From positions 1-24,334 of IMG/VR virus record IMGVR_UViG_3300020161_000045: a stretch of 24,334 nt of DNA; one strand, written 5' to 3'. Position numbers and translations under genes: made by a program. Positions within the stretch are counted from its first letter, which is position 1; the number at the start of each line of letters is the position of its first letter. Under the pieces are notes generated by a model. That model saw only the letters and a program-made list of their open reading frames with translations, was not told the DNA's origin and did no database searches. Source of the stretch: a virus. Lineage: Duplodnaviria > Caudoviricetes. Positions 7,701 to 21,700 of the stretch are shown piece after piece.

Positions 7701-10700
7701 CATCGTATCCAGTTATAACATTTGCTATATTTTCTCTTTGTGTTACTAATCCTGAGTTTTGTAAAGCAATTAATAGTCCTATAGATCTTCTGGCCTCATC
7801 AGCCCTTCCTGACCAAAATGCAGATATTTTTTCTAATTCAGATCCTAATTCGCCTACTTTTTCTTTTGCATTATTTATTTCCATTGAAGAATTTGAGTTT
7901 AAGGTAAGTGCAACCTGCATTGGTGTTTTTGTTAAATCTTCTCCATTAGGGCCAACTATGCTGGTTAAAGTTCCTGCAATTGCAAAACCTAAGTTTGTGT
8001 CTTTTAATTGTTGACCTAATGCATAGGATATTGATTGTGCTTGATCCTGACTCATAAGTCCACTTGCTACAGCCTGTGCCAATTTAGTTCCAATAGCATC
8101 TCTTGTTTTAGCAAAACTTCCTTCTGTTGTTTTTCTTATATTTTCAACTTCTTTTAAGAATGTTTTTCCTTGCTCTGATTCTAAAAAGTTTTTACCTTCT
8201 GTTAGAAGTTCATTCATTGATCTATTTCCAGTAAACATCTTATCTAATTGTTTTTGATAGTTTGACTTGTTACCAAAATAGTCTCCCATGGACTTAATGT
8301 TTTTAGTAGTCAAAGTCATGGCATTTCCTAATTCAATACCTTTTTTAACCTGAGCCTCATTTGATTTTTGTATTGCATAAAGTGATGCAACAACTACTAC
8401 TGCTGCAGCAGCAATTCCTGATTTCATTCCAACAACTACAGACGATAGCATACTTAAGCCCATTCCAGCAATCATCATTTTATTTGCAAACTCATTTTGT
8501 CCACCAGACATAATTGATGACATCATGGCAACACTTCCTATAGCACCACTTGCCATACTTATTCTTCCTGCATATTTAGCAGTTGTATTAGTTGCTTTAT
8601 TTGTTTGTGCAGCAAAATTTTCTGCTGCTCTTGCAGCAAGTATGTTTGCCTTTACTGCAATATTTTCAGAAACAAACCTACCCCTAGTATCTCTAAAATT
8701 AACTCTTCCTGTTTTATCTTGGCTAATTCTATAACCAGGATTTAATTCTTTTTGTGAATATTGTGGATTAAGTCCTTCTGCGTATTGTTTAACAGCACCT
8801 TTATTTATACTTTGTAAAAATGGTGCATATTTTTGAGAAGCATCTTTATTTATTACAAACTCGCCAGGAGTTAGTAGTGTTGGAATTGTATCTTGATTTC
8901 CAGATCCTGGAACCATACCACCTGTAGCCATTTTTTTAGGACTTCTTATTGATCTTCGTGCTGCTGTTGATGGGGCCATTACTCCTTTACCCATTGAAGC
9001 AGCAAGTTTATCTTGATTAGCAAATGCAAGAACTAGTTCTGTATTTAATAATTGTAGTTGTTTTGTTACTGAAGGAAGAATCGTTGCTTGTTTTCTAAGT
9101 GATGTAGTCGCAGCCTCAGTAGACATAGACAATTGTTTTGCTGCATCAGCAGATTTTAATTCTTCTAAACTTGCATAATTTGCAGACTGACCTATTAATT
9201 TTAATGCTTGAGGAAATCCACCACTAATCATTCCTTTTCCAACTAATGCAAAGTTTTGACCAAACTTAAAAAGTTGACCTATCAAGTTAAATAATAAACC
9301 ACTAAACATTAAGAATGTAGGAACAATAAGTCCAACAAGGATTGTACCAAATCCTATTATATTTTTAATTCCATCTGGTAAGTTATTAAATGCATTAGCA
9401 ACTGCGGCAGCAAATTTTACAAATGGTGTTGCTGCTCTAACAAACATTTCTCCTATAGGTGCTATAGATAATTTAAATTCTTCTATTGCTGCTTTTAGTT
9501 TTGTTCCATAGGCTTCTTCTATTCTTGATAATTCTCGATCTGACAAATTAGCAAGTTCTGCTGTAGAGTATTTCATTAAGTCTATAACTTGTGCTGCTTG
9601 AGATCCTTCTCTTCCAATGTTTTCAAATAATGCACCTAGTCTTGCGTATTGATATTTACCAAAAACTTTTTCTAATGCTTGTTGTCTTGAAAACATGTCT
9701 AGACCTTGTAAGGCTTGTCCAAAGTCCATGACGAGACCCATTAAGTCTCCTCTATTTGTTTGAATAATTGAATCAAGGTTTATATTAAATCCTGCTAATG
9801 TTTCGGTAGCGGCTTTTGTTGGATTAACTAAAGATGCCAAACCTGACTTTAATGCGTTTGCACCTTGTTCAGCAGATACCCCACCTTCTTGCATTGCTGC
9901 TAGAAATACTGTTAAGTCTTTTACATCTCCACCAAGTCCTCTAACAACTGGTGCTACACGAGGTATTGCTTGTGATATATCTTCCAAACTTACAACAGTT
10001 TGGTTTTCTACTGCGTTTAAAAAGTCAATTGTTTGAGCAAGTTCGTTACCACTAATTTGAAAAGCACTTTGTAAAGCGATGGTTGCTTTAAGTGCTGTAT
10101 TTTGTTCCATCTGTCCAAGAGTTGCTAATCTTGTTGCTTGAATTACTGCATCTCTTAATTCAACATCTCTTCTACCTGCTGCTGCTACTTGTCCAGCCAA
10201 TGCGAGAGTATCTTTTACTGCTATACCATATTTTGTAAATCCTTCTGCTAATTCCATTACTGAATCTAAGTTTTGTTGTGTTTGTTCTGTTGTTGTAAAT
10301 ACGTCTCCATAAACTCTTTTAAAATATACTGCTTGTTGCTCTAGTTCCATGAAGACTTTTCCTGCTGTGCTTCCTAGAATAGTTAATGGAACAGTAAAAC
10401 CTACCATCAACTGACGTCCAGCCCATTGGGTATTTTTACCAAAATTAATTAATTGTGTAGTTCCTTGTCTAAATAAATTACTTAAAAGTTGTTGTCTTTG
10501 AGCACTAATTTGAAGTTGATCATTAAATGCACTTACATTGCTTATTCTTAATGACTCTTGAAATCCTTTTGATGACTGCCCAGCCATAAGTAGGCTACTT
10601 GATAATACTCTTGCTCTTTCGTTTGCTAAATCTAAAACTCTATTATAACTAGTTCCATTTTTTACAAATTTTGCATCAAAATATTGGGATAAAGTTCCTC

Positions 10701-10953
10701 TACCTCTTGCTAGTGTCTTATCTAAAATAGAGGCACTAGTTCTAACCTTTTCAAATTCTGCAGTAAAAAGTTTTGTATTTGCAGCAGCATTTTTTATATC
10801 ATTTGCAATATTTTGGATACCAGAAAGTTGTCTTCTGTTTGATAAATTTGCAGCAGCATTAAAAGCATTTAATTGTTGGGTTAAACCTTTAATAGCATTT
10901 TTAGCCTGAACAACATCGGCATTAATATGTATATTGGCATTTACATCAGCCAC
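4741..10953 (-). CDS. Tail tape measure protein (TP901-type core)
   Basis: 2070 aa, GTG start with SD GAGGAGG (10964-10970). Ala/Gln/Leu-rich and helical, with a TMP core motif (LAAMQEGGVSAEQGANALKSGLASLVNPT), hydrophobic segments and coiled coils. Follows the frameshifted chaperone. Confidence 0.95.
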   Translation of the reverse strand: MADVNANIHINADVVQAKNAIKGLTQQLNAFNAAANLSNRRQLSGIQNIANDIKNAAANTKLFTAEFEKVRTSASILDKTLARGRGTLSQYFDAKFVKNGTSYNRVLDLANERARVLSSSLLMAGQSSKGFQESLRISNVSAFNDQLQISAQRQQLLSNLFRQGTTQLINFGKNTQWAGRQLMVGFTVPLTILGSTAGKVFMELEQQAVYFKRVYGDVFTTTEQTQQNLDSVMELAEGFTKYGIAVKDTLALAGQVAAAGRRDVELRDAVIQATRLATLGQMEQNTALKATIALQSAFQISGNELAQTIDFLNAVENQTVVSLEDISQAIPRVAPVVRGLGGDVKDLTVFLAAMQEGGVSAEQGANALKSGLASLVNPTKAATETLAGFNINLDSIIQTNRGDLMGLVMDFGQALQGLDMFSRQQALEKVFGKYQYARLGALFENIGREGSQAAQVIDLMKYSTAELANLSDRELSRIEEAYGTKLKAAIEEFKLSIAPIGEMFVRAATPFVKFAAAVANAFNNLPDGIKNIIGFGTILVGLIVPTFLMFSGLLFNLIGQLFKFGQNFALVGKGMISGGFPQALKLIGQSANYASLEELKSADAAKQLSMSTEAATTSLRKQATILPSVTKQLQLLNTELVLAFANQDKLAASMGKGVMAPSTAARRSIRSPKKMATGGMVPGSGNQDTIPTLLTPGEFVINKDASQKYAPFLQSINKGAVKQYAEGLNPQYSQKELNPGYRISQDKTGRVNFRDTRGRFVSENIAVKANILAARAAENFAAQTNKATNTTAKYAGRISMASGAIGSVAMMSSIMSGGQNEFANKMMIAGMGLSMLSSVVVGMKSGIAAAAVVVVASLYAIQKSNEAQVKKGIELGNAMTLTTKNIKSMGDYFGNKSNYQKQLDKMFTGNRSMNELLTEGKNFLESEQGKTFLKEVENIRKTTEGSFAKTRDAIGTKLAQAVASGLMSQDQAQSISYALGQQLKDTNLGFAIAGTLTSIVGPNGEDLTKTPMQVALTLNSNSSMEINNAKEKVGELGSELEKISAFWSGRADEARRSIGLLIALQNSGLVTQRENIANVITGYDVIIEKMKQTGDQTGAELLEQEKLSNVTKLQKLLEDQRKDMFKQFLPDAKDFAQYNQDLDRLEKKKLIAEENLTKAEQRLTRFDPKTSREQYNKTLQEIKQYKGELKSIETLQNQTIYNTEKFDQVQSEMFTGLGDSIKSLYGDTPIIKELLKLTEGQTLANANLRISVNAGTIDPQIAALIAQEMGETSEGKKTFNRLFSLDFVTIGEEAATSLAKSYLTMDEEQRKEFSLLIEQRGGNEVLKLVPLLEKVVNYPSLINLVLSIDTDKMTTEDFTKFQEGLTVIDEFPDLIGKEVVIKDLDKKDIMNIDTLYDKLVALKTVDEKYQYVIDSNIFGADSLIMFQEMWSSLKDDPKKVLQFMAIFSTGSTKISDLIQEREALFNLKPSPQTGRRIKQLNDEIADVEKGMLIATKATQDFQTTKEGGDEERKVSALEYLKALLELKMKGLDPAAAAQLEQLEAVQLSEQVIGKQIQSIKSLNEEQRIAAMTTEALKDENQRLSDTLTVSSALIDSQVKQLERTSIKPVQETIDLYQKTLDKITKKEDAINKRYEDRVKALDAVERANERLAAQQQNQIDLAGALTSGDFGTAARAAAEMTSAAAGYQLEDAKLALEEQKQVDINNITEEVNGKLMTRVQIQDQINAQQERLVQLEKEKTVLVEKQFKIQTLSQLMSVVGEIRNSANRTQRDMLLTQAQSMGTTLGISNIQGAGAFGGLSKELGIDLSAISVEITSAVQTSQKSIQELAGHTKSVGDSFKLSASLFKKAETEASNSLSFMTGISSLWGDRKSGLVATGADIYATFKSAKDAISKGVVDINNAKQQALAAIASASSPKKKTQTGMYGGLMKYMTGGMVNYKGSREPAPGMNYGGKMKKYAVGSMVPGVGITDKVPALLTPGEFVVRKSVTQANLPLLEALNGNVFPSMNSEGMEASPVLTTSNVSNISAPMYNYSVNVNVADTNASANEIANVVINKIKMTQDRGVRGNRY

Positions 10954-10958
10954 TTAAT

Positions 10959-11626
10959 TTATACCTCCTCATAGTCAAGACCTTCACCTATTCCAAAACC
11001 AGCACGCTTTGCTGAGTGCCCCCGTAATGAAACGATGTCCTCTGGGTCAGAAGTTTTGCCTTTGCTAAATGCTTTAGCCTTTATTCTTTCCCATTCTTCT
11101 TGACCCTTAGAAGAATTCTTTTCAAGGTCTACACCTTGCATCGCTGCTAAGAATTTTTTATCTTCATACTCAGATTTTCTTTTTGCTCTAAGTACTTCAA
11201 ACAATTCTGGCATTGATAGAGATTCTTCTAAGTCTTGATAGTCTTTCCAGTTTCCTAGTAAGAATATCTCTGACTCTACCTCGGCAAGTTCTAAATCTTT
11301 CCAGGACCTGCCGTTAGAAGGTTTGGGGAGTCACCATTAAAGGTAATTCCAGATGCTACTTCAATTATTTTATAAATTGATGGTAGATCAATTACGTCTT
11401 CTAACTTTTCCTTATCTTGTGAAAGTTCTGGTTTGTATTGCTTCATTGCCACCTGTACGCATTCTAATAATACGTCCATTGATTTAATATTATCTTCTGC
11501 TACGTCACTAATTTTTTCAAATGTCTTCATAAATTCACGAAGAATTGAAATTTTTAAAGGACGTAAACTTAATTTTGTTCCATCCAATAACTCTATATTT
11601 ACTATCTCATAAACACTTGTTGCCAT
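10959..11626 (-). CDS. Tail assembly chaperone, long -1 frameshift product (gpGT-like, about 222 aa); includes track ORF 10959..11213
   Basis: The -1 frame is open from the slippery site through PSNGRSWKDLELAEVESEIFLLGNWKDYQDLEESLS into MPELFEV... and ends at TAA 10959-10961. Confidence 0.85.
11282..11327 (-). promoter_or_regulatory. Programmed -1 ribosomal frameshift signal: heptamer C CCA AAC plus downstream stem-loop
   Basis: In-frame X XXY YYZ heptamer at 11321-11327, 7-nt spacer, then hairpin CGGCAGGU-C-CUGGA-AAGA-UUUAG-A-ACUUGCCG (11282-11313). The -1 frame has stops (TAA TGG TGA) just upstream of the heptamer. Confidence 0.85.
11291..11626 (-). CDS. Tail assembly chaperone, short form (gpG-like)
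   Basis: 111 aa, acidic, between major tail and TMP genes. SD AAGGAGG. Carries a slippery site near its 3' end. Confidence 0.88.
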   Translation of the reverse strand: MATSVYEIVNIELLDGTKLSLRPLKISILREFMKTFEKISDVAEDNIKSMDVLLECVQVAMKQYKPELSQDKEKLEDVIDLPSIYKIIEVASGITFNGDSPNLLTAGPGKI

Positions 11627-11654
11627 TAAAAGCCTCCTTAAGACTCTAATAAAA

Positions 11655-11663
11655 ATTATAGCA
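11655..11663 (-). promoter_or_regulatory. Extended -10 promoter (TGCTATAAT) for the chaperone-TMP-tail tip unit
   Basis: TGnTATAAT consensus upstream of the chaperone SD, abutting the terminator U-tract. Confidence 0.7.
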
Positions 11664-11692
11664 CAAAACCCACCCTCAAACGAGAGTGGGTC
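11664..11692 (-). terminator. Intrinsic terminator after the major tail gene
   Basis: ACCCACUCUC-GUUU-GAGGGUGGGU: 10-bp stem (one G-U) followed by a short UUUG tract. Confidence 0.75.
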
Positions 11693-11711
11693 AAGTGTTT
11701 ATGCTTTTGGT

Positions 11712-12359
11712 TTAGATTGTACGATCTACAATCTTTCCATATGATCCATTTGATGCTGAAAGTAAACGGAATGTTACTTCGAACATTGATGGTTCATCAC
11801 GCTTTGCTGAAACTGTTACGTTTTCAATTGATAACGCACGGTTAGCAACGTAGACACGTTCTTTAGTGATTTGTGGGTCACCAGTGCCTGGACCAACTGC
11901 AACGAGAGCACGTTCAACTGGAACATCTCCGATATCTCCAGAAAGGATTTCTAGTGTATCGACTGATCCGTTAGTTGTTAGGTCTGCATCGTCTGCTGCA
12001 ATTGCAGTAACTAGGTTATCCAAAGTTGCTTCAGCAAATGCTGTCACTAAACTTACGGACATTCCTTGTTTGTACAAACGTGCAACGTCTAGTAATTGAT
12101 CTACTTGAACTTCGCCAAAGTCTGGTTGGAATTGTAATTCCAAACCATTCATGGTGTATCCAACATTTGTAAATGCTGAACAAGCACTCATTACTGTTTT
12201 GAAGTCTGTTGCTCCTGAGAATGCTGGAACACCAGTAGTTGATGCAGATGAGAATCTGTATCCACCAACTGATGCAAAGTATTCTAGTGAGTCGTCTGCA
12301 ACGAATAATGCTGCTGCACCAACGATGATCTTTTTAGAATCTCCACGAGTATATGCCAT
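11712..12359 (-). CDS. Major tail (tube) protein
   Basis: 215 aa with siphoviral tube-like motifs (IIVGAAALF, VGYTMNGLEL, VQVDQLLD, FEVTFRLL). Strong SD GAGGAGG, followed by a terminator and the chaperone. Confidence 0.9.
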   Translation of the reverse strand: MAYTRGDSKKIIVGAAALFVADDSLEYFASVGGYRFSSASTTGVPAFSGATDFKTVMSACSAFTNVGYTMNGLELQFQPDFGEVQVDQLLDVARLYKQGMSVSLVTAFAEATLDNLVTAIAADDADLTTNGSVDTLEILSGDIGDVPVERALVAVGPGTGDPQITKERVYVANRALSIENVTVSAKRDEPSMFEVTFRLLSASNGSYGKIVDRTI

Positions 12360-12385
12360 ATTTTTTTCCTCCTCTTTTTTTAAAA

Positions 12386-12412
12386 GTGGGGGCGTTCCTC
12401 AATACAATTATA
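12386..12412 (-). promoter_or_regulatory. -10 box (TATAAT) and GC-rich leader element of the major tail gene
   Basis: TATAAT (12407-12412) followed by ATTGAGGAACGCCCCCAC (12386-12403) in otherwise A/T-rich intergenic DNA. Confidence 0.55.
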
Positions 12413-12422
12413 TATCTTATTT

Positions 12423-12989
12423 TTATGTAAGACTATCTGGGACTACCTTGTGAAAATCGTACTTTATAACAAAATCTGTGCTAAAAACGCTTCTTTGAAC
12501 ATCTAAATTTGTAGCATCTTCCATATATGTCACTTGATATAGGTTTATACAGTGTAGGAAGAATTTATTGTTTACCCCGTGTAATTGTTGAGCATACTGG
12601 TTTATTTCATCTGCTGCTACATCTTCTCTATCTAGTAAGTCATACATCAGTGTTCTTAGATTTAAAGATCCTACTATTGTTGGGGCAGTAACCTTGATTA
12701 AAGCCTGCATACTCTTAATAGGATAAAAATATCTCATAGAGCCAGTTCTTTGTTTAATAAAATCATCATAAGTAATTAATACATTATTAGTGTCCCAAGA
12801 AAAATTGCTAGTATTTTTTGCTACAGATATAGGAAAGATAGGGATGATATTGTATGGTGGCTCAGAATTGTTTTCTTGATTTTGTAATTCTGGATATGCT
12901 GTTTTAGCCTTATCCCAAAAAAACTTACAGATTGTCAGGGTAGGAGAGTCTATGGCTGCTGCTGTAGCATTTGTATCATAGGTAGTCAT
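12423..12989 (-). CDS. Putative tail terminator / tail completion protein
   Basis: 188 aa directly upstream of the major tail gene, TAATG-coupled to the upstream gene. Call is by synteny. Confidence 0.55.
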   Translation of the reverse strand: MTTYDTNATAAAIDSPTLTICKFFWDKAKTAYPELQNQENNSEPPYNIIPIFPISVAKNTSNFSWDTNNVLITYDDFIKQRTGSMRYFYPIKSMQALIKVTAPTIVGSLNLRTLMYDLLDREDVAADEINQYAQQLHGVNNKFFLHCINLYQVTYMEDATNLDVQRSVFSTDFVIKYDFHKVVPDSLT

Positions 12990-13447
12990 TAGTAGGTTAC
13001 CTCATTTTGTTTTGGAGATCTTTCCATATACCCTCTATAAAATTTTATTTCATGGGTATCTCCATATGAAGCAACAAAGGTCTTTATTTCATATTGAACA
13101 TTTTTGTCTCTTACATCTTTGGTAACAATCTTTCCATTAGAGTCTTTTATGTTAGTAATCAATATTTCGGTAATAGGATAGTATGTTCCATTCTTTTTTG
13201 ATTGAACATTGTCATTTGTTCTTAATAGCATATTTGAGGTAAATTGAACTAAGGAGTTATTTGACTTTAATTCTCCAGTAAGTGTTTTATCTGACATAGC
13301 AGATATGATTGAGCATTTAATTGTTCTATCGTATACCCAGGATTTTTCAATTACCCCGATAGCATTTTGTTTGCTTTCTGCATAATATATGTCTGCTGAC
13401 ATTGGATAGTATATGCTATCTAGTTTAGAACTATTTTTTAAAAACAA
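12989..13447 (-). CDS. Putative head closure (stopper) protein
   Basis: 152 aa beta-rich protein, TTG start abutting the upstream TAA. YPMSADIYY...GVIEKSW resembles head-tail adaptor/stopper N-termini. Synteny supports this; the start could be Met15. Confidence 0.55.
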   Translation of the reverse strand: MFLKNSSKLDSIYYPMSADIYYAESKQNAIGVIEKSWVYDRTIKCSIISAMSDKTLTGELKSNNSLVQFTSNMLLRTNDNVQSKKNGTYYPITEILITNIKDSNGKIVTKDVRDKNVQYEIKTFVASYGDTHEIKFYRGYMERSPKQNEVTY

Positions 13448-14320
13448 TTAGAACACCCCAGGAAGAATAGGTTTTTGATATCTCTCCAGGATTCTATCTA
13501 CGACACGGTTGCCTGTGCTTGAGGTCCAATTCTTAGAAAATTTAATTTTAAAGTCATCATTGTCAAATGATTCAATATATCTATTGACGTATCTTAAACT
13601 ATCATTTGCTATATCTTGAACTAGTAATTCTGAGGCATCTTGAATATCTTGAGGAATAACTTTCCAGCCAAAGTCTCCATCTACAACATATTCATATCCA
13701 TTAAAAAAGTCTACATCTAAAAATCTATCTCTCCAGATTTTAGGGTAATCTATCCTATTTCCTTCTGGAATATCAAGAACAATTGCATTTAATTGTCTAA
13801 GAATCTTGTATTCTGATTCATTGTTTTCTGAAGTAGAATCATACATCAATTCTCCATTTTCATACAACTTATATAGTTTGTGTATATTTTCATCAATTAA
13901 AAGTTGATCTGATCCATCACCAATAAATTCTTTTTCTTTTCTAATAAAGGAAAATCCACCTGTGTGTGAGTCTATAATGTATCTTGCTAGTCTTTCATAT
14001 TCTGTTGCTTCTGATACCTTAATTGATAAGGCAGTAGCAATTGTATTTGGATTTGAGTATGGTCTAACTATATCTAAGTTTGTAATATTAACTAGGTCAT
14101 CATTTTGATCTTTTACTGATGCTGATAATGATCCTGTATATGTTAAATAATGATTTGGCATTAAGAATGATGCAACTCCAGATCCATTGGCTGTTGCACT
14201 TGCTGAATATGAAGTTCCTGTTATTAAATCATCTAACTCTATAGTGTATGAAGAACTTGCTGTTAATCCAGAAAAAGATGCAGATAAACTAGTTGTGTTA
14301 TTTAATCTTAAAAGTTCCAT
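13448..14320 (-). CDS. Head-tail connector (adaptor) with an N-terminal Ig/FN3-like extension
   Basis: 290 aa after the capsid gene. C-terminal GWKVIPQDIQDASELLV...VDRILERY is typical of gp6/gp15-like connectors. Ser/Thr-rich N-terminus with SGLTASSSYTI. Confidence 0.7.
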   Translation of the reverse strand: MELLRLNNTTSLSASFSGLTASSSYTIELDDLITGTSYSASATANGSGVASFLMPNHYLTYTGSLSASVKDQNDDLVNITNLDIVRPYSNPNTIATALSIKVSEATEYERLARYIIDSHTGGFSFIRKEKEFIGDGSDQLLIDENIHKLYKLYENGELMYDSTSENNESEYKILRQLNAIVLDIPEGNRIDYPKIWRDRFLDVDFFNGYEYVVDGDFGWKVIPQDIQDASELLVQDIANDSLRYVNRYIESFDNDDFKIKFSKNWTSSTGNRVVDRILERYQKPILPGVF

Positions 14321-14337
14321 TAATGCACCTCTAAATT

Positions 14338-14346
14338 ATTATATCA
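14338..14346 (-). promoter_or_regulatory. Extended -10 promoter (TGATATAAT) for the neck genes
   Basis: TGnTATAAT between the capsid terminator and SD GAGGTG of the connector gene. Confidence 0.7.
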
Positions 14347-14350
14347 TTTA

Positions 14351-14386
14351 TAAATAAATAAGAGGGGAACATTTCTGCTCCCCTCT
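14351..14386 (-). terminator. Intrinsic terminator after the major capsid gene
   Basis: AGAGGGGAGCA-GAAA-UGUUCCCCUCU: 11-bp stem with a GNRA loop, then UAUUUAUUU. Confidence 0.85.
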
Positions 14387-14404
14387 CTAATTTCGTAAAG
14401 CAAA

Positions 14405-15385
14405 TTATGCTGTACGTGCGATTGCATCAGTTTCTTCGATTTGAACGCCGAAACGTAAGAATACAGTATATTCTACTGTGTCTTTCTTAGGTTGGAATTC
14501 GCGATGAACTGTGATATCTCTTTGGAAACCCCAAATACGGTTTTCAGGGAATGTCAAAGTGATACGGTTTGCAGGCATCAATGGAACTTCCAATAAAGGA
14601 AGACCCAATACACGGTACTGAATTGGAGCACCAAGTATTTGTGGTTCTTGACCAGCAACAACTCTTTCAACGATTCTTTCGCTGTTCAGGTTACCTGAAG
14701 AGCCAAGTCCGTTGATGATGTTTGATACTGTTTCTGTGTCTGCATAGAACTTCATTGCTGAACGTGAAGCACGATATTTACGAGGCATTGCAAGCACTAA
14801 TGCTTGTAAGTCTTCGATATCTGTACCAAATGTTGCAGTGTTTGTTGAATTGTTTTCCTTTGTAGTAAAACCTTCCAATATGTTCAAGAATGCATTTGAA
14901 CCTGTACCTGTTCCGTTGATTGCGAGATCTTCGAGATCATTTGCGAAAGCACGAGTCATTGTGCGGACCAAATGGTCTTCCAATCCTGCACCTTCCAAGT
15001 TGTCTTCGAGTGCTTCAGTTGATACTTCCCAGTCAAGACGAATCTTCTTTGTAGAGATTTCGACCTTTGTGAAAGTAACACCAGCGTTTGTGTAAGTAGA
15101 ATCTGCTTGTGCAGCAGCACGGATTACACGTTCTCCAACGTTAAGTTTTTCAAGTTCTGCAGCGTTTGTACGCATTGTTACTCTGCGTCCATCTCTTGCT
15201 AGTACTTGTTGTTCGAATATGTATTCGATAAATTGGCGTGATTGCTCAGGAGCAAGAATACCGCCGTCATTAGCGGAACTTCCTGCGACACCAAGGTCTC
15301 CTGCGGCTGGGGTGCTTACACCTCCAATACCACCAGAAACGATAGATCCTGTTGCAGCAGCCTTTTGTAAAATTTCTTCTGCCAT
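14405..15385 (-). CDS. Major capsid protein, HK97 fold
   Basis: 326 aa with GGILAPEQSRQFI, EVSTEALEDN, FANDLEDLAINGTG and VLGLPLLEVPLMP motifs. SD GGGAGGTG (15394-15401), downstream terminator. Confidence 0.93.
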   Translation of the reverse strand: MAEEILQKAAATGSIVSGGIGGVSTPAAGDLGVAGSSANDGGILAPEQSRQFIEYIFEQQVLARDGRRVTMRTNAAELEKLNVGERVIRAAAQADSTYTNAGVTFTKVEISTKKIRLDWEVSTEALEDNLEGAGLEDHLVRTMTRAFANDLEDLAINGTGTGSNAFLNILEGFTTKENNSTNTATFGTDIEDLQALVLAMPRKYRASRSAMKFYADTETVSNIINGLGSSGNLNSERIVERVVAGQEPQILGAPIQYRVLGLPLLEVPLMPANRITLTFPENRIWGFQRDITVHREFQPKKDTVEYTVFLRFGVQIEETDAIARTA

Positions 15386-15409
15386 AATTATTTCACCTCC
15401 CAGTGAATG

Positions 15410-16000
15410 TTAACGATATAGGTCAGCGGAATTGAGGAAACGCCCGCCCCACATCGATTTTCTTGTTATTTGTGTTTCCTGAACGACCCCGCCTAGGTCG
15501 CCAGACTTACGGACAGCAGTGTCGTCTTCTAATTCATCGACACGCTTTCCAAACTCGTCTACATTGCCCTTAATTCCTTTAATTTCCTCTTGTGCGGAAG
15601 CAATGCTCTTTTGTAGTTCTGCCATTTTGTCATTTAGTGACTTTACGGTTGCCACCAAGTCTCCAAGTGCTGAAGCAACTGTATTTTGAACCTCATCAAT
15701 AGATTCTTGTACTGTATCAACAGCCTTTGCTAAATCAGCAGGTGCTTCTTCAGCAGGAGTGGCGGCATCTTGTGCTGGGGCTTCTGTTTGTTCAGCAGGT
15801 GCTGCTTCTTCAGCAGGTGCTACTTCTTCAGCAGGTGCTGCTTCTTCAGCAGGTGCTACTTCTTCAGCAGGTGCTGCTTCAACAGGTGCTACTTCTTCAG
15901 CAGGTGCTGTTTCTGCAACAGGGGCTGTTTCTTCAGTTCCCTCAGACTTTACAATGTTTTCTTCAGCAACAATTGCTGGTTCTACATTTTCTTTTGCCAT
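15410..16000 (-). CDS. Nested in-frame scaffold protein (196 aa) from internal start Met262
   Basis: AAGGAGG (16009-16015) lies 8 nt before an in-frame ATG at 16000, at the protease/scaffold boundary. Confidence 0.65.
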   Translation of the reverse strand: MAKENVEPAIVAEENIVKSEGTEETAPVAETAPAEEVAPVEAAPAEEVAPAEEAAPAEEVAPAEEAAPAEQTEAPAQDAATPAEEAPADLAKAVDTVQESIDEVQNTVASALGDLVATVKSLNDKMAELQKSIASAQEEIKGIKGNVDEFGKRVDELEDDTAVRKSGDLGGVVQETQITRKSMWGGRFLNSADLYR

Positions 16001-16783
16001 TATATTCCCCTCCTTATCAGGATTTTCAGCCTTGGTTACTTTATCACCAAGTCTATTTTTCTGTGATTTAATTAATCCTTTTACCACAGAATTCTTTTCG
16101 GTATCATTAGATTCAACAAAGCCTATATTTATCATACCTTTATCGCATGATGGGCAACATGAATCTTCGTCTTGAGAAAGTCTAACGATGGAATCAGATT
16201 CGCACCAATAAACATTTTCAAGATCTACCTTACTAATAATACCATCAAATTTATTTTGTCCGTCAGCCATTTTTTCAATTGAAATAATATTTGCAAATTG
16301 ATTGGCTGGATTATCTACTAATGAGAGTTCATGGAGTTCATAGTCTTTAATAACGCGAATTGACTTATCCATCTCGGCATTGTATACCTGGTCAGATTCC
16401 TTAATACTACCACCAATAGAAAAACCAGAAAGAGTGCCATCAAGAACCTTTTCCCAAGTATCTTGAGCACCTTTAGAAATGTATGCATTTACAAAAACTC
16501 CATTATAAAATTTGTCTTCTTCTTGATTATAAAACTTGTCTGATTTGAATGACATTACCCTGCCGACTGCAATAGGCATGTGCATTTCACGAAGGTTTCC
16601 TCTGAATCTTTCAAAGGCTTTTACACTTACATCTGTTGGGACAATATCTGACTGCTTGTCAACATTGTCTAATGTAGCAAACCCAGAAACGGTACGTTTC
16701 TCTTTGTCGATTTTAGCAATTGGCATCGATAACTTAATGCTATTTTCTTCTGAGTGCCAAAATGCTTTGGATAAATTAGTCAT
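15410..16783 (-). CDS. Prohead (capsid maturation) serine protease, HK97/XkdF-like, fused to a scaffold domain
   Basis: RTVSGFAT..VDKQSDIV, REMH (His), WEKV.DG..SGFSIGG (Ser) and ELSLVDNPANQ motifs. Acidic Pro/Ala/Glu linker and C-terminal coiled coil. Confidence 0.9.
   Translation of the reverse strand: MTNLSKAFWHSEENSIKLSMPIAKIDKEKRTVSGFATLDNVDKQSDIVPTDVSVKAFERFRGNLREMHMPIAVGRVMSFKSDKFYNQEEDKFYNGVFVNAYISKGAQDTWEKVLDGTLSGFSIGGSIKESDQVYNAEMDKSIRVIKDYELHELSLVDNPANQFANIISIEKMADGQNKFDGIISKVDLENVYWCESDSIVRLSQDEDSCCPSCDKGMINIGFVESNDTEKNSVVKGLIKSQKNRLGDKVTKAENPDKEGNIMAKENVEPAIVAEENIVKSEGTEETAPVAETAPAEEVAPVEAAPAEEVAPAEEAAPAEEVAPAEEAAPAEQTEAPAQDAATPAEEAPADLAKAVDTVQESIDEVQNTVASALGDLVATVKSLNDKMAELQKSIASAQEEIKGIKGNVDEFGKRVDELEDDTAVRKSGDLGGVVQETQITRKSMWGGRFLNSADLYR
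15791..15913. repeat. Coding tandem repeat, about seven 18-bp units (ttcagcaggtgct[g/a]cttc), encoding PAEE[V/A]A
   Basis: Units at 15791, 15809, 15827, 15845, 15863 (15 bp), 15878 and 15896. The g/a alternation gives a 36-bp higher-order repeat. Confidence 0.95.
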
Positions 16784-16792
16784 GCTACCTCT

Positions 16793-16833
16793 ATTATAAT
16801 AAGTGTTTATAGGTACTTTAGAATATTATAACA
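16793..16833 (-). promoter_or_regulatory. Two -10 elements upstream of the protease: TGTTATAAT (16825-16833) and TATAAT (16793-16798)
   Basis: Both lie in the 52-bp portal-protease gap. The proximal one is 9 nt from the ATG. Confidence 0.6.
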
Positions 16834-16835
16834 AA

Positions 16836-18392
16836 TTATTGTTGAGATCGACCTTCACCCTGTGGATTTCTCCCAGTAGTGGTTGAGGTTGAGTCAGACG
16901 CATTGTTAGTTCTTTCTTGGTCTCTATTTCTATTTCCAGTAGATTGGGCTACCTGCTCAGCCCTTGCCTGTGCTCCTAAAACAATTGGTTCAGAGCCTCC
17001 TGGTCTAACTGGATAGTTCAATCTTTCACGAACTTCATTTGGGACAAGAACCTGCATACGCAAGTATCTCTCATCTATTTGACTTTGAGTTTGCTCATCT
17101 GTCAATGTTAGTTCGTTAAATTTAAGGGAAAGCATATCTGTCTTTTCTTTAACAATCTTGTTAATAGTTTTTTCTAGATTTCTTTGTGCTGGTCTTGCAA
17201 CCTGCTCCTTAAATGTTCTATCTGCCACCAATGCTGATGCGATAGAAATTCCTGCACCACCGCCAACCTTTGAATATGGAACTTGGTGAGCCATTAAGAT
17301 ATCATCACGGTTTGCTTTGCGATATCTATCAAATGATCCATCTTGAATGCCATTCTCAATAGGTTCTAATTTAAAGTCTACTTTGTTATCTGGTCCATCT
17401 CCAGGAAGAGGGATGTAAAGAGTTCTATGGTTTTGACCCTTTAATCCTGCTTGCATAAATCTAAAGAATTTATCCTCTGCATCTGAACTAAGTTTGGCAC
17501 CTTTAACTATTGCAATGTATCTAGGAACTGCTTTATTTTCGAAATAGTCAACATTGTACTTGGCTGCAAGTTCATTTCCAACCATAGATGTTGCTGATGC
17601 TACTGTATCTGGAACTCCATAATATGAGTTCTTTGGGGAATACTTTTTAATATGGATTAGTTCGTTTGGTCTATTGTCATTTGTTACAGGGTTAATATTT
17701 TTTTGTTCTTGAAAGTTTCTAAAATATACTACCTTTTGATTTACTATTTGAATATACCCGTCACGCATACGGCGTACACGAATTGTAGTTGCTGGGATAT
17801 GACCAATATAGCCAATATCTCCATTTACTTTTCTACCAATTTCAATGTAACCATTTCCTACTGTTTCAACATCTGTATATACTTTTTCTAATACGTGAGT
17901 AAAAGTGTCTTCATCATTTAAACTTTCTACCCAGTCTGTTAAATCTGCTTTTGCTCTTTGAATTTTTCTTTGTGCTCTCATTAGAGACATGTCATCTGGT
18001 GCCTCTTCTAATTTAGCAACCGTAGAATCTGTCATGTTAAATGAATATCCAAGACCTACAATATTAGCAACCTTTGCTTGAATAGCAGCATGGTTTGCAA
18101 ATGAGTTTTCATAAAAGTAAGCCAGTTCATCTAAATTGTATGGTGGTAGAACAACATCAAAAAGACCATAGGCAGTAACCATGTCCATCTCTGGAAATAG
18201 TTGTTTTGATCTAGTATCATCAACACCCATAAATGCTTTACTTACTGTTCTAGAAATTTTACGTTTAAAGTTTTGATGTATGCCATCATAAGACTTAATA
18301 AGTTCTCCATCAATATTAAATGGATCTATCTTTTCTTTTTTTTCTACTTTATCAAGATTATCAATCTTGGCTATTGATCCGTTATCTTCCAT
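16836..18392 (-). CDS. Portal protein (HK97/PBSX-like)
   Basis: 518 aa with GNGYIEI, NELIHIKKYSPKNSYYGVP, YFENKAVP, ILMAHQVP and PNEVRERL motifs. Lies upstream of protease and capsid. Confidence 0.92.
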   Translation of the reverse strand: MEDNGSIAKIDNLDKVEKKEKIDPFNIDGELIKSYDGIHQNFKRKISRTVSKAFMGVDDTRSKQLFPEMDMVTAYGLFDVVLPPYNLDELAYFYENSFANHAAIQAKVANIVGLGYSFNMTDSTVAKLEEAPDDMSLMRAQRKIQRAKADLTDWVESLNDEDTFTHVLEKVYTDVETVGNGYIEIGRKVNGDIGYIGHIPATTIRVRRMRDGYIQIVNQKVVYFRNFQEQKNINPVTNDNRPNELIHIKKYSPKNSYYGVPDTVASATSMVGNELAAKYNVDYFENKAVPRYIAIVKGAKLSSDAEDKFFRFMQAGLKGQNHRTLYIPLPGDGPDNKVDFKLEPIENGIQDGSFDRYRKANRDDILMAHQVPYSKVGGGAGISIASALVADRTFKEQVARPAQRNLEKTINKIVKEKTDMLSLKFNELTLTDEQTQSQIDERYLRMQVLVPNEVRERLNYPVRPGGSEPIVLGAQARAEQVAQSTGNRNRDQERTNNASDSTSTTTGRNPQGEGRSQQ

Positions 18393-18747
18393 GTTTTCTC
18401 ATTCCTTCTTGGGCAAGCATCCATGCTCCAATATCTGTTTCGCTAGGAATTAATCCTTCTTTCATTCTTTCAATTTGATTTTCGTGTTCTTGATCAGAAA
18501 TTCTATTGACTCCAGCCATAAACTGAACTTTTCCTGGTGGTGCATTGTAGTGTTCAGCAGCCTGTCTTATTTTTGACATTTTTTCTAAGTCATATGGTCT
18601 ACCAGGTACATTCATAATGTTACCATTGCCATCACCAAAAGGCTTGTTGTCTAGGTCACACATCCATACATATATGCCCCAGTCTGATTGTTTTTCTATT
18701 ACAGTTATTCTTGGCTTACCATTATTTTTTAATTTTCTTGGATTCAT
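18382..18747 (-). CDS. Hypothetical protein, probably co-transcribed with the portal
   Basis: 121-aa ORF filling the gap, overlapping the portal start by 11 nt, with its own promoter. Confidence 0.8.
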   Translation of the reverse strand: MNPRKLKNNGKPRITVIEKQSDWGIYVWMCDLDNKPFGDGNGNIMNVPGRPYDLEKMSKIRQAAEHYNAPPGKVQFMAGVNRISDQEHENQIERMKEGLIPSETDIGAWMLAQEGMRKHGR

Positions 18748-18754
18748 GTCAACA

Positions 18755-18763
18755 AGTATACCA
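18755..18763 (-). promoter_or_regulatory. Extended -10 promoter (TGGTATACT) giving a probable leaderless mRNA
   Basis: TATACT lies exactly 7 nt before ATG 18747, with no SD. Confidence 0.7.
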
Positions 18764-18765
18764 CA

Positions 18766-21700
18766 TTATACTGGTTTGACAATAATTGTGTCCCACACTA
18801 CGTCAGAAATTAAATCAACACCGTCAGAATTTAACTCTACTACAGCATTATCTTCTGAAACTATGCTTGAATTGCCCAGATAAGATGACATTATTGCATT
18901 TCCATCTATTGTATATGTTATATAGTTAGTTAAAGAGTATACAGAAGACCAGTTTAATGGAAGCCAATCTTCCCATTGATACTGAATGTATACTGAGCCA
19001 TCTTCTGTTATAACCTCTGCTGTTCTTATATCTTGCCAAGATCTTGCATCAACACTTTGTCCAAGTATGTCAGTTGATTTTTCATATATAGCAAAGTTAT
19101 TATATAGGAATCCTTCGTAAAATTCTAACTGCCCAGATGTTGCATTTAATATAATTGTGTCTCCAAAGGAAACTATAATAGACGTCCAGACAAGTGGCTC
19201 CACTATTGGGTTTTTAATAATTTGTCCATTTTGATAAAATACTGTAACTGGATTTTCTAAGCCAGTCTCTGAGTCAAAGACTCTTACTAGTCCACGCTTT
19301 CCATCATCTATTGGTTCTAAATAAAAATCATATGATCTATCTTGTGTTGATACCCTTGCTATTTTTTTAACAGAATCAATAGTTAAATCTTTATTGTACA
19401 TACCCCAAAATTGGAATCCACCTAGTGAATAGTCTTGAACTTTTTTAGAATTTATAGGTATAGAAATACCTCTTGTACTATTTGAAGGGTATGGCAAAAT
19501 TGATATTCCAGAATCTGAAGTTAAATATAGATAAGGGGTAGAGTCTTTATATATGAAAAATGGGTTCTTTTCTTTATAAGAATATGATCTTTCGTATCTG
19601 GTTATAGGGTATATCTTATTTCCAGTCCTAGTGTTTATTTCAAAGAAGTTGTTTTCATCAGATACTATTGAGGATAGGCTCATTCTTTTAATTCTAATAG
19701 GTTTTGTATTTACCCCCTTTGATTTTATTTCTAAATGTATGTTTATATAATAGTTTGAAAAGTTTACTAGTTCTTTAGGTGGAAATATTATTGTGCCATC
19801 GGCTATCTCAAATTTTGTATTAATAACATCTACAGTATTGTCAAAATCAATAACCTTAGTAGAAGATAGTTTCTCTATATTTGAATAATTTGAGTATGAT
19901 ACAAGTCCTACCTCGTCTATATTTTGAAGTGTCATATAGGCTTTAACATTTATATCATCATAGTAAGAAGGGCTTGAAGATGGATCTGTAAGAATTTGAG
20001 AAGGGTATTCTAGGTTAAATTGAATCATGTCTAGATCATAGTATTCTAATCCACTTTTATCTTTTACTATTTTTCCAAAATAAGATAATGGAAGAGAGTC
20101 TTCCCAATACCCTGCAGAACTAACATCTAGGATCAAAGAAGAAGAGTCTACTACTGGCTTAAGGGTATAGTTTCCAACATAAGTAAAATATTCTGATGGG
20201 GCTCCAGGATTAGCAAATCCATTAAAATCAAAATATGAACCCATATCTTTTTGATTAAAAAAACTATTGTTAAATGTTAAACTATAAAATTTTCCTAGAA
20301 ATGTAGAGGTAGAGTATCCCATAAAACTTAATGATATGTTTTTTGGATTAGAGAAAAAATTTCCTATAATATTAGAATAGTTAATGTTTAGTTTGTCAAT
20401 ATCTATTCCTGCAGAAAATTTAGAACTTGCTGAAACTGATTCAGTATTTAACAATATATCGTTATATAAGTATTTTAATCCACTTGAGTCTATAGTTATC
20501 TTTAAGTTATTATTATTTAAAGAATTGTAAAAATACATAAGGGTTTGAGGTGTAGCATCTAAAGTTGTTGGGGCTTCAAATACTCCATGTATAGATGACA
20601 CTCTATCTGATATTGGATTTATTGAGTCAAACTCCAAAGACCCATCTATATTAACGTATGCATTGTTTGGTCTAATTTTTAAAAATGGATAATCTACATT
20701 ATTTTGAATTAAAAAGTTGTCTGTATATATGTCTGAAACTTCTTCTGTAATTACACCAGTCCATGACTGCGATATCCAGTTTATCCAATCTTGTTGATTA
20801 AACTCAGTCCATGTTCTTGGATTTGCAGATGATGTAAAAACTGTTCCCTCTCCAAGAAATCTAAAATTTGGAAGTACATATTCTTTAAGACCTATATATT
20901 TTGAATTAGAATCTAAATTGTTAAAATATCCAGAATTCCATGGATTCATATCTGGATAATTTATTGTAGACGCATAATTGGCAAATGGAAAATCAATAGG
21001 TAAAAACTCTCCTAAAAAGTTATTAGACACTGCTTCAATATTTTGAACTCCTTGTGCATAAATAAATCTTCTTTTTGCAACTTGATCTGGAACAACATAT
21101 GGATATATTGCTAAACAATCTATCTCAAAAGGCCTTATATCCTCATTTCCATAAAAACCTATCCAGTCATAATTGTTTCTTGCAAAGTTAATATTTGATA
21201 TATCTATGTCTAACTCAATAACAACATCTCCATTTATTAAGACGCTAACTAAATTAGGAGTATACCTAATATCAATAAGCATTGGTCTATACCACTTACC
21301 TACAAAATAAGACTTGCTATATTTTCCAACTTTTAAAGTTAAAAATTCATAATCAACATACAATCCATCTTTTGATGATAATGGCCCAAATATTCTTGTT
21401 TCGTTAGTTAAACTTGGATTAAGTCTTATCCAAAATTCTGCAGTTATATTTGAATATTGTCCATTTTTATTTAAAAATCCTTTACCTGGAAAAATTGCAG
21501 CAGGCATTTGTGGAGTAACTGGTGCCACTATCTCGGTTATGTTTCCAGCACCATATATCATTGGCAAGTTATTATTATGAGCAAGCATTCTATTTCCATC
21601 TATAACAAAATATCCAGTGTCTGAATCATTAAAACCATAGGCATCTACTGGAAAAATTTTAACTGGAACGTCTGGAATTAAATCAGTAATATCATTAATT

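Follow-up and report, generated by a model that had tools for sequence, protein, structure and literature searches.

The stretch of DNA analysed here is 24,334 nt long (positions 1 to 24,334 of IMG/VR virus record IMGVR_UViG_3300020161_000045, hereafter the window) and represents the minus-strand structural module of a siphophage. In this module, the leader of the gene for the major tail (tube) protein is complementary to a short site at the end of the head maturation protease/scaffold gene, just upstream of the major capsid gene. As judged from related loci, the complementarity between the capsid and tail-tube messages is real, deeply conserved, and selected, and it is highly probable that a selected RNA duplex does exist.

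An earlier, sequence-only reading had placed the two partners at 12403-12386 (tail side) and 15452-15431 (capsid side), the latter 46-67 nt upstream of the capsid ATG (15385). Both strings were found there and the coordinates agree; the pairing was computed as 18 bp, arranged as 9 bp, a bulged U, 5 bp, a 3-nt bulge, and 4 bp, with an energy of -27.5 kcal/mol. When the tail leader was used as a probe against the whole 24-kb coding strand, the capsid site ranked best (-25.8; runner-up -20.7). The best matches of 30 shuffled tail probes on the same strand had a mean of -20.7 (standard deviation 1.6, strongest -24.1), so the real probe exceeded all of them. With the capsid site as the probe, the tail leader was ranked at the top (-27.2; next -22.2). 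The tail leader and the capsid site are mutual best partners on the coding strand of the window. They lie on the same strand, 3.0 kb apart, and are not a cis-encoded antisense pair, whose members come from opposite strands of the same DNA. A search of positions 10500-19000 with Rfam covariance models returned two weak matches, far under the gathering score and neither of them at the pairing sites.

Conservation in related phages

The related loci gathered numbered 423 (424 with the window); both genes were present in 293 of them and both starts in 261, with 178 distinct leader pairs. Rows L057 and L073 were left out for their odd protein lengths. Comparisons were based on 62 representatives at <85% capsid identity, the lowest being 32% identical to the window; as these viruses are related, the counts should not be taken as independent trials. 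A test without any motif, run on fixed windows, ranked the capsid leader as the best partner of the tail leader among the gene leaders of the locus in 59/62, with 8.5 expected by chance; in the reverse ranking, the capsid leader had the tail leader as its top probe in 53/62 (chance again 8.5). The three target misses were L209, L324, and L388, and in the last two the site is partly or wholly beyond the fixed window. Net binding after refolding had a median of -12 kcal/mol and was below -5 in 59/62, and the cognate partner beat the mean of six random non-cognate partners in 56/62. In most relatives, bulges or internal loops interrupt the duplex. Phages Weasels2 and Zuko, both outside the 62, revealed by eye no layout of -10 box plus seed, and their wide-window energies (-21.6 and -22.7) overlap those of the positives.

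Compensatory changes, pairing words, and codon choice

For covariation, rows were anchored on the Phe codon, which was achieved for 58/62; the register was automatic and ungapped, and some rows are misregistered, including the bulged duplex of the window itself. The pair states found were G-C 29, C-G 8, and A-U 5 at position -2; U-A 36 and C-G 15 at -1; C-G 52 and U-A 5 at +2; and C-G 48, U-A 6, and A-U 2 at +5. By parsimony over nine positions on a quick capsid tree with 67 tips, 35 changes were two-sided, from one Watson-Crick pair to another, while 18 had a G.U, 11 an A.C, and 26 another mismatch as the starting or resulting state. The count of 35 includes the change of CTC to CTA facing GAG to UAG, which was dropped as a compensatory change and is read as relaxed selection, because its facing base precedes the predicted transcription start. 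The conserved complementarity with compensatory changes that had been proposed as a check is present in the relatives, with the best partner in 59/62 and about 35 two-sided changes. Specific complementarity is kept through compensatory change, as is characteristic of mRNA-mRNA regulation in trans.

The pairing words themselves differ among the relatives. Jay2Jay pairs CACUUCCUCA with UGAGGAAGUG, Wakanda pairs CGCUUCCUC with GAGGAAGUG using one G.U, and the corresponding words are UUUCGUCGUU and AACGACGAAA in L227, and UUUUCCGCGU and ACGCGGAAAA in L240. Rhodococcus phages Trina and Dorin pair through a wholly different word, UCCUACC against GGUAGGA, in a match that reaches 15-16 bp; their site spans the protease stop codon and the tail partner is again directly 3' of TATAAT. 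Dorin still encodes WGG-I-F upstream, yet its pairing is placed elsewhere. Unrelated pairing words were also found in L324, where the site is entirely non-coding, and in L292, and the duplexes of L242 and L388 rely on 3-4 G.U pairs. Codon choice at the site is unusual as well: Phe is TTC in 59/67, as against 159/429 in the protease genes, and Leu is CTC in 50/67 rows, as against 70/978 Leu codons. By this constraint, the pairing site keeps rare codons in place in the last part of the protease gene.

Since the words change with the match kept, and rare codons are fixed, chance is excluded and a protein-bound DNA word is very unlikely. Among all the explanations weighed, the least probable is a DNA-level inverted repeat (a protein site, looping, or inversion) or two motifs conserved independently, the WGGxF peptide and an element downstream of the promoter, with a coincidental match. 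It is in line with the constraint of the protein on the WGG codons and with the lack of a significant asymmetry between G.U and A.C mismatches. Against it stand the complete change of the word in some relatives, the displaced pairing in Dorin across the stop codon, the asymmetric bulges, and the dependence of some duplexes on several G.U pairs. Inversion between the sites was rejected, as both sites share strand and order in all 293 two-gene loci (0/293 inverted). GAGGAA as a general promoter-downstream element was rejected too, as it is absent after the other 17 -10-like sites listed in the window. The energy of the sense strands beats that of the antisense strands in 41/65 pairs, and the antisense is better in 22.

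A further word, CUAGCC (mostly CCUAGCCAGC), is located 3' of the seed in the tail leaders of 12/62 representatives (L158, L159, L205, L209, L210, L215, L227, L240, L293, L296, L339, and L345) and persists where the seed word differs. In L310 and L313, the CUAGCC part pairs best with a second stretch farther upstream in the protease gene. The word may serve as an additional contact or bind a protein.

Predicted tail promoter and transcript ends

The -10 box of the predicted tail promoter, TATAAT, is at 12412-12407, from which the transcription start (+1) is predicted at about G12400, the seventh base after the box; the promoter is absent from the list produced by a consensus promoter scan of the window. 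The tail site had been placed at the predicted 5' end of the message. Its position just after TATAAT holds, but its first three letters (AUU) are probably untranscribed, which leaves about 15 bp. In the relatives, the -10 box was picked independently of the duplex. In the 49 relatives counted, the number with a Watson-Crick pair is 14-21 over the first five nucleotides after the box, rises to 26, 35, and 41 at nt 6, 7, and 8, and reaches 47-48 over nt 9-13; pairing thus begins 7-8 nt downstream of the box, where +1 is predicted. Rows in which the third position of the Leu codon is faced by a base only 6 nt downstream of the box have the common codon CTA in 11/14 cases; with the facing base at least 7 nt downstream, a C-G pair is present in 123/124 rows. 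In 13 further rows with the facing base 4-5 nt after the box all pairs are C-G, and the boxes of these rows may be mis-picked. From the pairing onset and the Leu-codon pattern, selection on pairing appears to end where the tail mRNA is predicted to begin, as expected for an RNA end and not for DNA. In contrast to this fixed edge, the distances from site to ATG are variable (-26 to -84 for tail, -34 to -110 for capsid).

Terminator-like hairpins follow both genes (Table 1), and in a coding control such hairpins were found in 0/62. Because one of them closes the tail gene, the tail mRNA is predicted to be monocistronic, and because they stand behind both genes, the two messages likely pair in trans. 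Pairing in cis within long read-through transcripts, or of the tail RNA 5' end with non-template DNA at the capsid leader so as to affect transcription, seems quite improbable. The constant strand and order of the sites would suit it, and G.U-tolerant pairing cannot tell RNA:RNA from RNA:DNA; but the capsid-to-tail gene spacing among relatives is 2.8-7.85 kb, a terminator-like hairpin is between the sites in 45/62, and selection ends at the predicted +1 of the tail promoter, which read-through RNA would ignore. Other -10-like hexamers were seen on the minus strand at 16830-16825 before the protease gene, at 14343-14338 right after the capsid terminator, and at about 18770-18755 before the pre-portal open reading frame (ORF). 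As they are at the starts of blocks, each structural block may own a promoter.

Hairpins and ribosome-binding sites

The capsid-side segment had been read as a hairpin loop, and this is borne out: CGUUUCCUCAAU forms the 12-nt loop of a predicted hairpin that is, with 14 bp, longer than was claimed. Among relatives, the seed is within a hairpin loop in 28/57, as against 14.5 expected from shuffled flanks, and the capsid-side region folds better than shuffled flanks in 48/57, weakly so (median z -1.0). On the capsid side of the 62 representatives, some 25 nt upstream of the duplex, the G-rich arm is directly preceded by an A-rich stretch (A in about half of the rows), which might be a site of processing or simply reflect Lys/Thr-rich linker codons. 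The capsid Shine-Dalgarno sequence (SD), in GGAGGUGA, is held in a small predicted hairpin of its own, independent of the pairing site. This hairpin is formed by UUCACU/GGUGAA, and many close relatives show a comparable UCAC...GUGA pattern. The tail SD is weakly masked by CCCCCACUUUU in the free leader. The proposed folding of the tail segment over its own SD was indeed predicted, but it is weak (z -0.8), with 45/200 shuffles as good.

It had also been suggested that the duplex frees one or both ribosome-binding sites (RBS). For the tail RBS this holds at most weakly: the opening cost in the dimer changes by a median of -1.3 kcal/mol, and the site is more open in 35/62, more closed in 9, and unchanged in 18. 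The real tail 5' segment outdoes shuffled ones in 43/62 (p 4e-4), with -1.35 vs -0.72 kcal/mol, a difference of about 0.7. For the capsid RBS the suggestion was rejected, as the site is more open in 6/62, more closed in 20, and unchanged in 36, and a separate computation of site occupancy agrees: with its site occupied, the capsid RBS is closed further than with a shuffled site in about 51/62 (median +0.3 kcal/mol). The anti-antisense arrangement, in which the site sequesters the SD and binding frees it, does not apply to the capsid RBS.

These figures bear on two alternatives. The stronger is a translational switch, in which binding would free the tail RBS by an anti-antisense action and spare or slightly damp the capsid RBS, so balancing tails against heads; a version with both RBSs freed is its weaker form. 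The drop in opening cost of the tail RBS, the advantage of the real tail segment over shuffles, and the closing of the capsid RBS when its site is occupied all speak for such a switch. It is nevertheless considered unlikely: the effects are small on both sides, the distance to either RBS is not fixed, the anti-SD fold in the tail leader of the window is hardly better than shuffles, and the effects may be incidental, as an arm rich in C pairs with a G-rich SD just as it does with the G-rich Trp-Gly codons. Negative control, with the duplex marking one or both mRNAs for cleavage by RNase III or RNase E, or blocking a ribosome standby site, and so capping excess message, is improbable. A loop meeting a free 5' end is the geometry typical of inhibitory antisense pairs, and in 20/62 dimer formation leaves the capsid RBS slightly more closed; yet the duplex is short and bulged or looped in most relatives, which makes a poor substrate for RNase III, it ends at least 34 nt upstream of the capsid ATG, and both products are presumably needed in bulk simultaneously.

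Proposed shielding of the tail mRNA 5' end

The reading favoured, tentatively and with somewhat more doubt than trust, is that the tail-tube mRNA has its 5' end shielded through pairing in trans with the capsid mRNA, so that tail output would depend on capsid mRNA. The monocistronic tail mRNA would start at about G12400. Its free 5' end would nucleate on the UUCCUC loop and zip into the G-rich arm, giving a duplex of 15-20 bp in two helices. The duplex would hide the 5' end from 5'-end-dependent decay of the RppH, RNase E, or RNase J type, and slightly loosen the tail RBS. Ribosomes completing translation of the protease gene would remove the duplex, so that it would last chiefly on capsid messages with an untranslated or trimmed upstream part, and it could cap the 5' side of these messages too. 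What is conserved, a pairing fixed to +1 with a variable distance to either start codon, fits 5'-end shielding better than an RBS switch, and shielding is favoured by the strictly kept coverage of the 5' end of a predicted monocistronic mRNA with a strong 3' hairpin. RNase E and RppH are described as requiring single-stranded 5' ends (PMC3997798), and RNase J as occurring in actinobacteria (PMC7917786).

A bolder form of this proposal is possible but more doubtful. In it, the capsid and tail-tube mRNAs would form a 1:1 heterodimer, each capping the vulnerable 5' side of the other, and the duplex would set the ratio of head to tail protein with neither a protein regulator nor a small RNA (sRNA), across an actinobacterial-type siphophage group comprising Stanwilliamsviridae, Trina, Dorin, and many uncultured relatives.

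Several points weigh against shielding. In most relatives, the capsid site is 3-10 codons upstream of the protease stop, so that passing ribosomes would unwind it. Only in 49/62 does the -10 box, picked independently, adjoin the seed helix, and the 14 rows with a shifted start represent about two lineages. Mismatches, which could tell RNA from DNA, were G.U in 17 and A.C in 8 cases among 58 representatives, which is not significant (p 0.11), and 42 vs 39 over 173 rows (helix ends 28 vs 30, core 13 vs 7); the asymmetry was thus rejected as proof of RNA over DNA. The host, and hence its nuclease set, is inferred from relatives only, and comparative data cannot separate shielding from other effects of a 5'-end duplex.

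Another explanation is co-localisation, with the duplex mainly a tether between the two most abundant structural mRNAs, by which heads and tails would be produced side by side and in matched numbers, without an effect on stability. A tether need not start exactly at +1, yet selection stops there, and heads and tails assemble on separate pathways; this is slightly less probable even than pairing in cis. The position of the pairing outside both ribosome footprints and the small predicted RBS effects are consistent with it. The same idea has been raised as speculation for the hly-prsA2 pair of Listeria (PMC8722363).

Genome context and host

Genes of the module are ordered as portal, head protease/scaffold, major capsid, three head-tail genes, major tail, two chaperone-sized ORFs, and tape measure; the features near the pairing sites are listed in Table 1. 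The two ORFs at 11626-11291 and 11213-10959 occupy the position of the tail assembly chaperones, and a joined (frameshifted) form is annotated in relatives Dorin and Phredrick. An 18-nt tandem repeat at 15716-15964 of the window encodes an AP(A/V)EE(A/V) linker within the protease/scaffold protein.

Table 1. Features of the window at and around the two pairing sites
Feature	Position	Strand	Remarks
Tail-side pairing site	12386..12403	-	Predicted 5' end of tail mRNA; 12400 onward predicted transcribed
Capsid-side pairing site	15431..15452	-	G-rich arm and loop seed UUUCCUC; conserved, covarying
TATAAT, -10 box of predicted tail promoter	12407..12412	-	Spacing conserved in relatives; missing from consensus scan list
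Predicted capsid-side hairpin	15414..15456	-	14 bp, -16.3 kcal/mol, z -2.3; seed in 12-nt loop 15442-15431
Small predicted hairpin with capsid SD	15392..15407	-	Independent of pairing site
Tail SD, GAGGAGG	12368..12374	-	Weakly masked in free leader
Head maturation protease/scaffold gene	15410..16783	-	ORF; phrog_9427, E 6e-130; last codons WGGRFL bear capsid-side pairing site
Major capsid protein gene	14405..15385	-	ORF; phrog_1623, phrog_10; ATG at 15385
Major tail (tube) protein gene	11712..12359	-	ORF; phrog_2175; homologues annotated major tail protein
Terminator-like hairpin 3' of capsid gene	14360..14387	-	z -6.7; 45/62 relatives
Terminator-like hairpin 3' of tail gene	11667..11692	-	z -3.7; 54/62 relatives

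Cultured relatives are mainly Streptomyces phages (Stanwilliamsviridae), plus Rhodococcus phages; the 136 tail-protein matches among cultured phages comprise 129 Streptomyces, 5 Rhodococcus, and 2 Microbacterium phages. The host is probably an actinobacterium, because the cultured relatives infect Streptomyces and Rhodococcus. Contigs from lake RNA libraries span the capsid and tail genes, and some are identical to the window; these are assembled sequences with no raw reads and cannot reveal transcription, its level, strand, or ends. Contigs of several relatives end about 30-60 nt upstream of the tail ATG and four extend 100-210 nt, and as these ends vary, they are uninformative on the tail start site.

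Comparison with known systems and significance

In the IS10 RNA-IN/RNA-OUT system, a free mRNA 5' end likewise invades a hairpin loop. That system is cis-encoded, with perfect complementarity and a dedicated non-coding RNA, and inhibits by RBS occlusion, whereas in the phage element the partners are two mRNAs, their complementarity is imperfect, and their loci are separated by 2.8-7.85 kb. DsrA and RprA are activating anti-antisense sRNAs of rpoS, and there too an RNA pairs in trans with a structured leader. A trans-acting RNA that pairs with a phage capsid mRNA has been described as well, the host sRNA ArcZ, which binds the gene 23 mRNA of T2 (bioRxiv 10.64898/2026.06.19.733364). All these are dedicated sRNAs, host-encoded in the case of T2, and differ further in that no freeing of the capsid RBS is predicted for the phage element.

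Closer parallels are found between mRNAs. In Listeria monocytogenes, hly mRNA protects the 5' untranslated region (UTR) of prsA2 from RNase J1 (PMC8722363). As proposed for the phage element, one complete mRNA is paired in trans to another, functionally linked mRNA at its 5' end (PMC8722363, PMC8079631), and the SD of the protected partner is not the target. The Listeria donor is a 3' UTR and its one-way protection from RNase J1 is demonstrated (PMC8722363), while in the phages a 5' end would meet a leader/coding hairpin of the structural operon, the pairing covaries across the group, and the effect is a predicted one. In Streptococcus mutans, the 5' UTR of irvA mRNA forms base pairs with gbpC mRNA in its coding region and affects its stability; this is bacterial stress regulation in which the target is protected from RNase J2 (PMC8722363), whereas the phage pairing starts at the predicted +1 and is directed at a hairpin loop located where the upstream gene ends. 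Few trans mRNA-mRNA interactions are known in bacteria, and PMC8722363 (2020) gives irvA-gbpC as the sole earlier case. The sequence-only reading knew of no described system of this kind, and a full-text literature search found no paper that describes a phage case, with most subscription papers outside its coverage and absence from print therefore unproven; its single phage hit was the study of the host sRNA that binds T2 transcripts. Complementarity between capsid and tail-tube mRNAs is apparently undescribed in print.

Head and tail modules assemble separately, and the matching of their output is usually credited to promoters, terminators, and RBS strength. If true, a selected pairing would link head and tail directly through their two main structural mRNAs. 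The pairing site also accounts for the rare codons at the end of the protease gene. As the element is present in cultured Streptomyces phages for which laboratory hosts exist and can be broken and restored by synonymous and non-coding changes, it is directly testable. Should the two mRNAs indeed form a heterodimer, virion assembly would have a counting device at the level of RNA.

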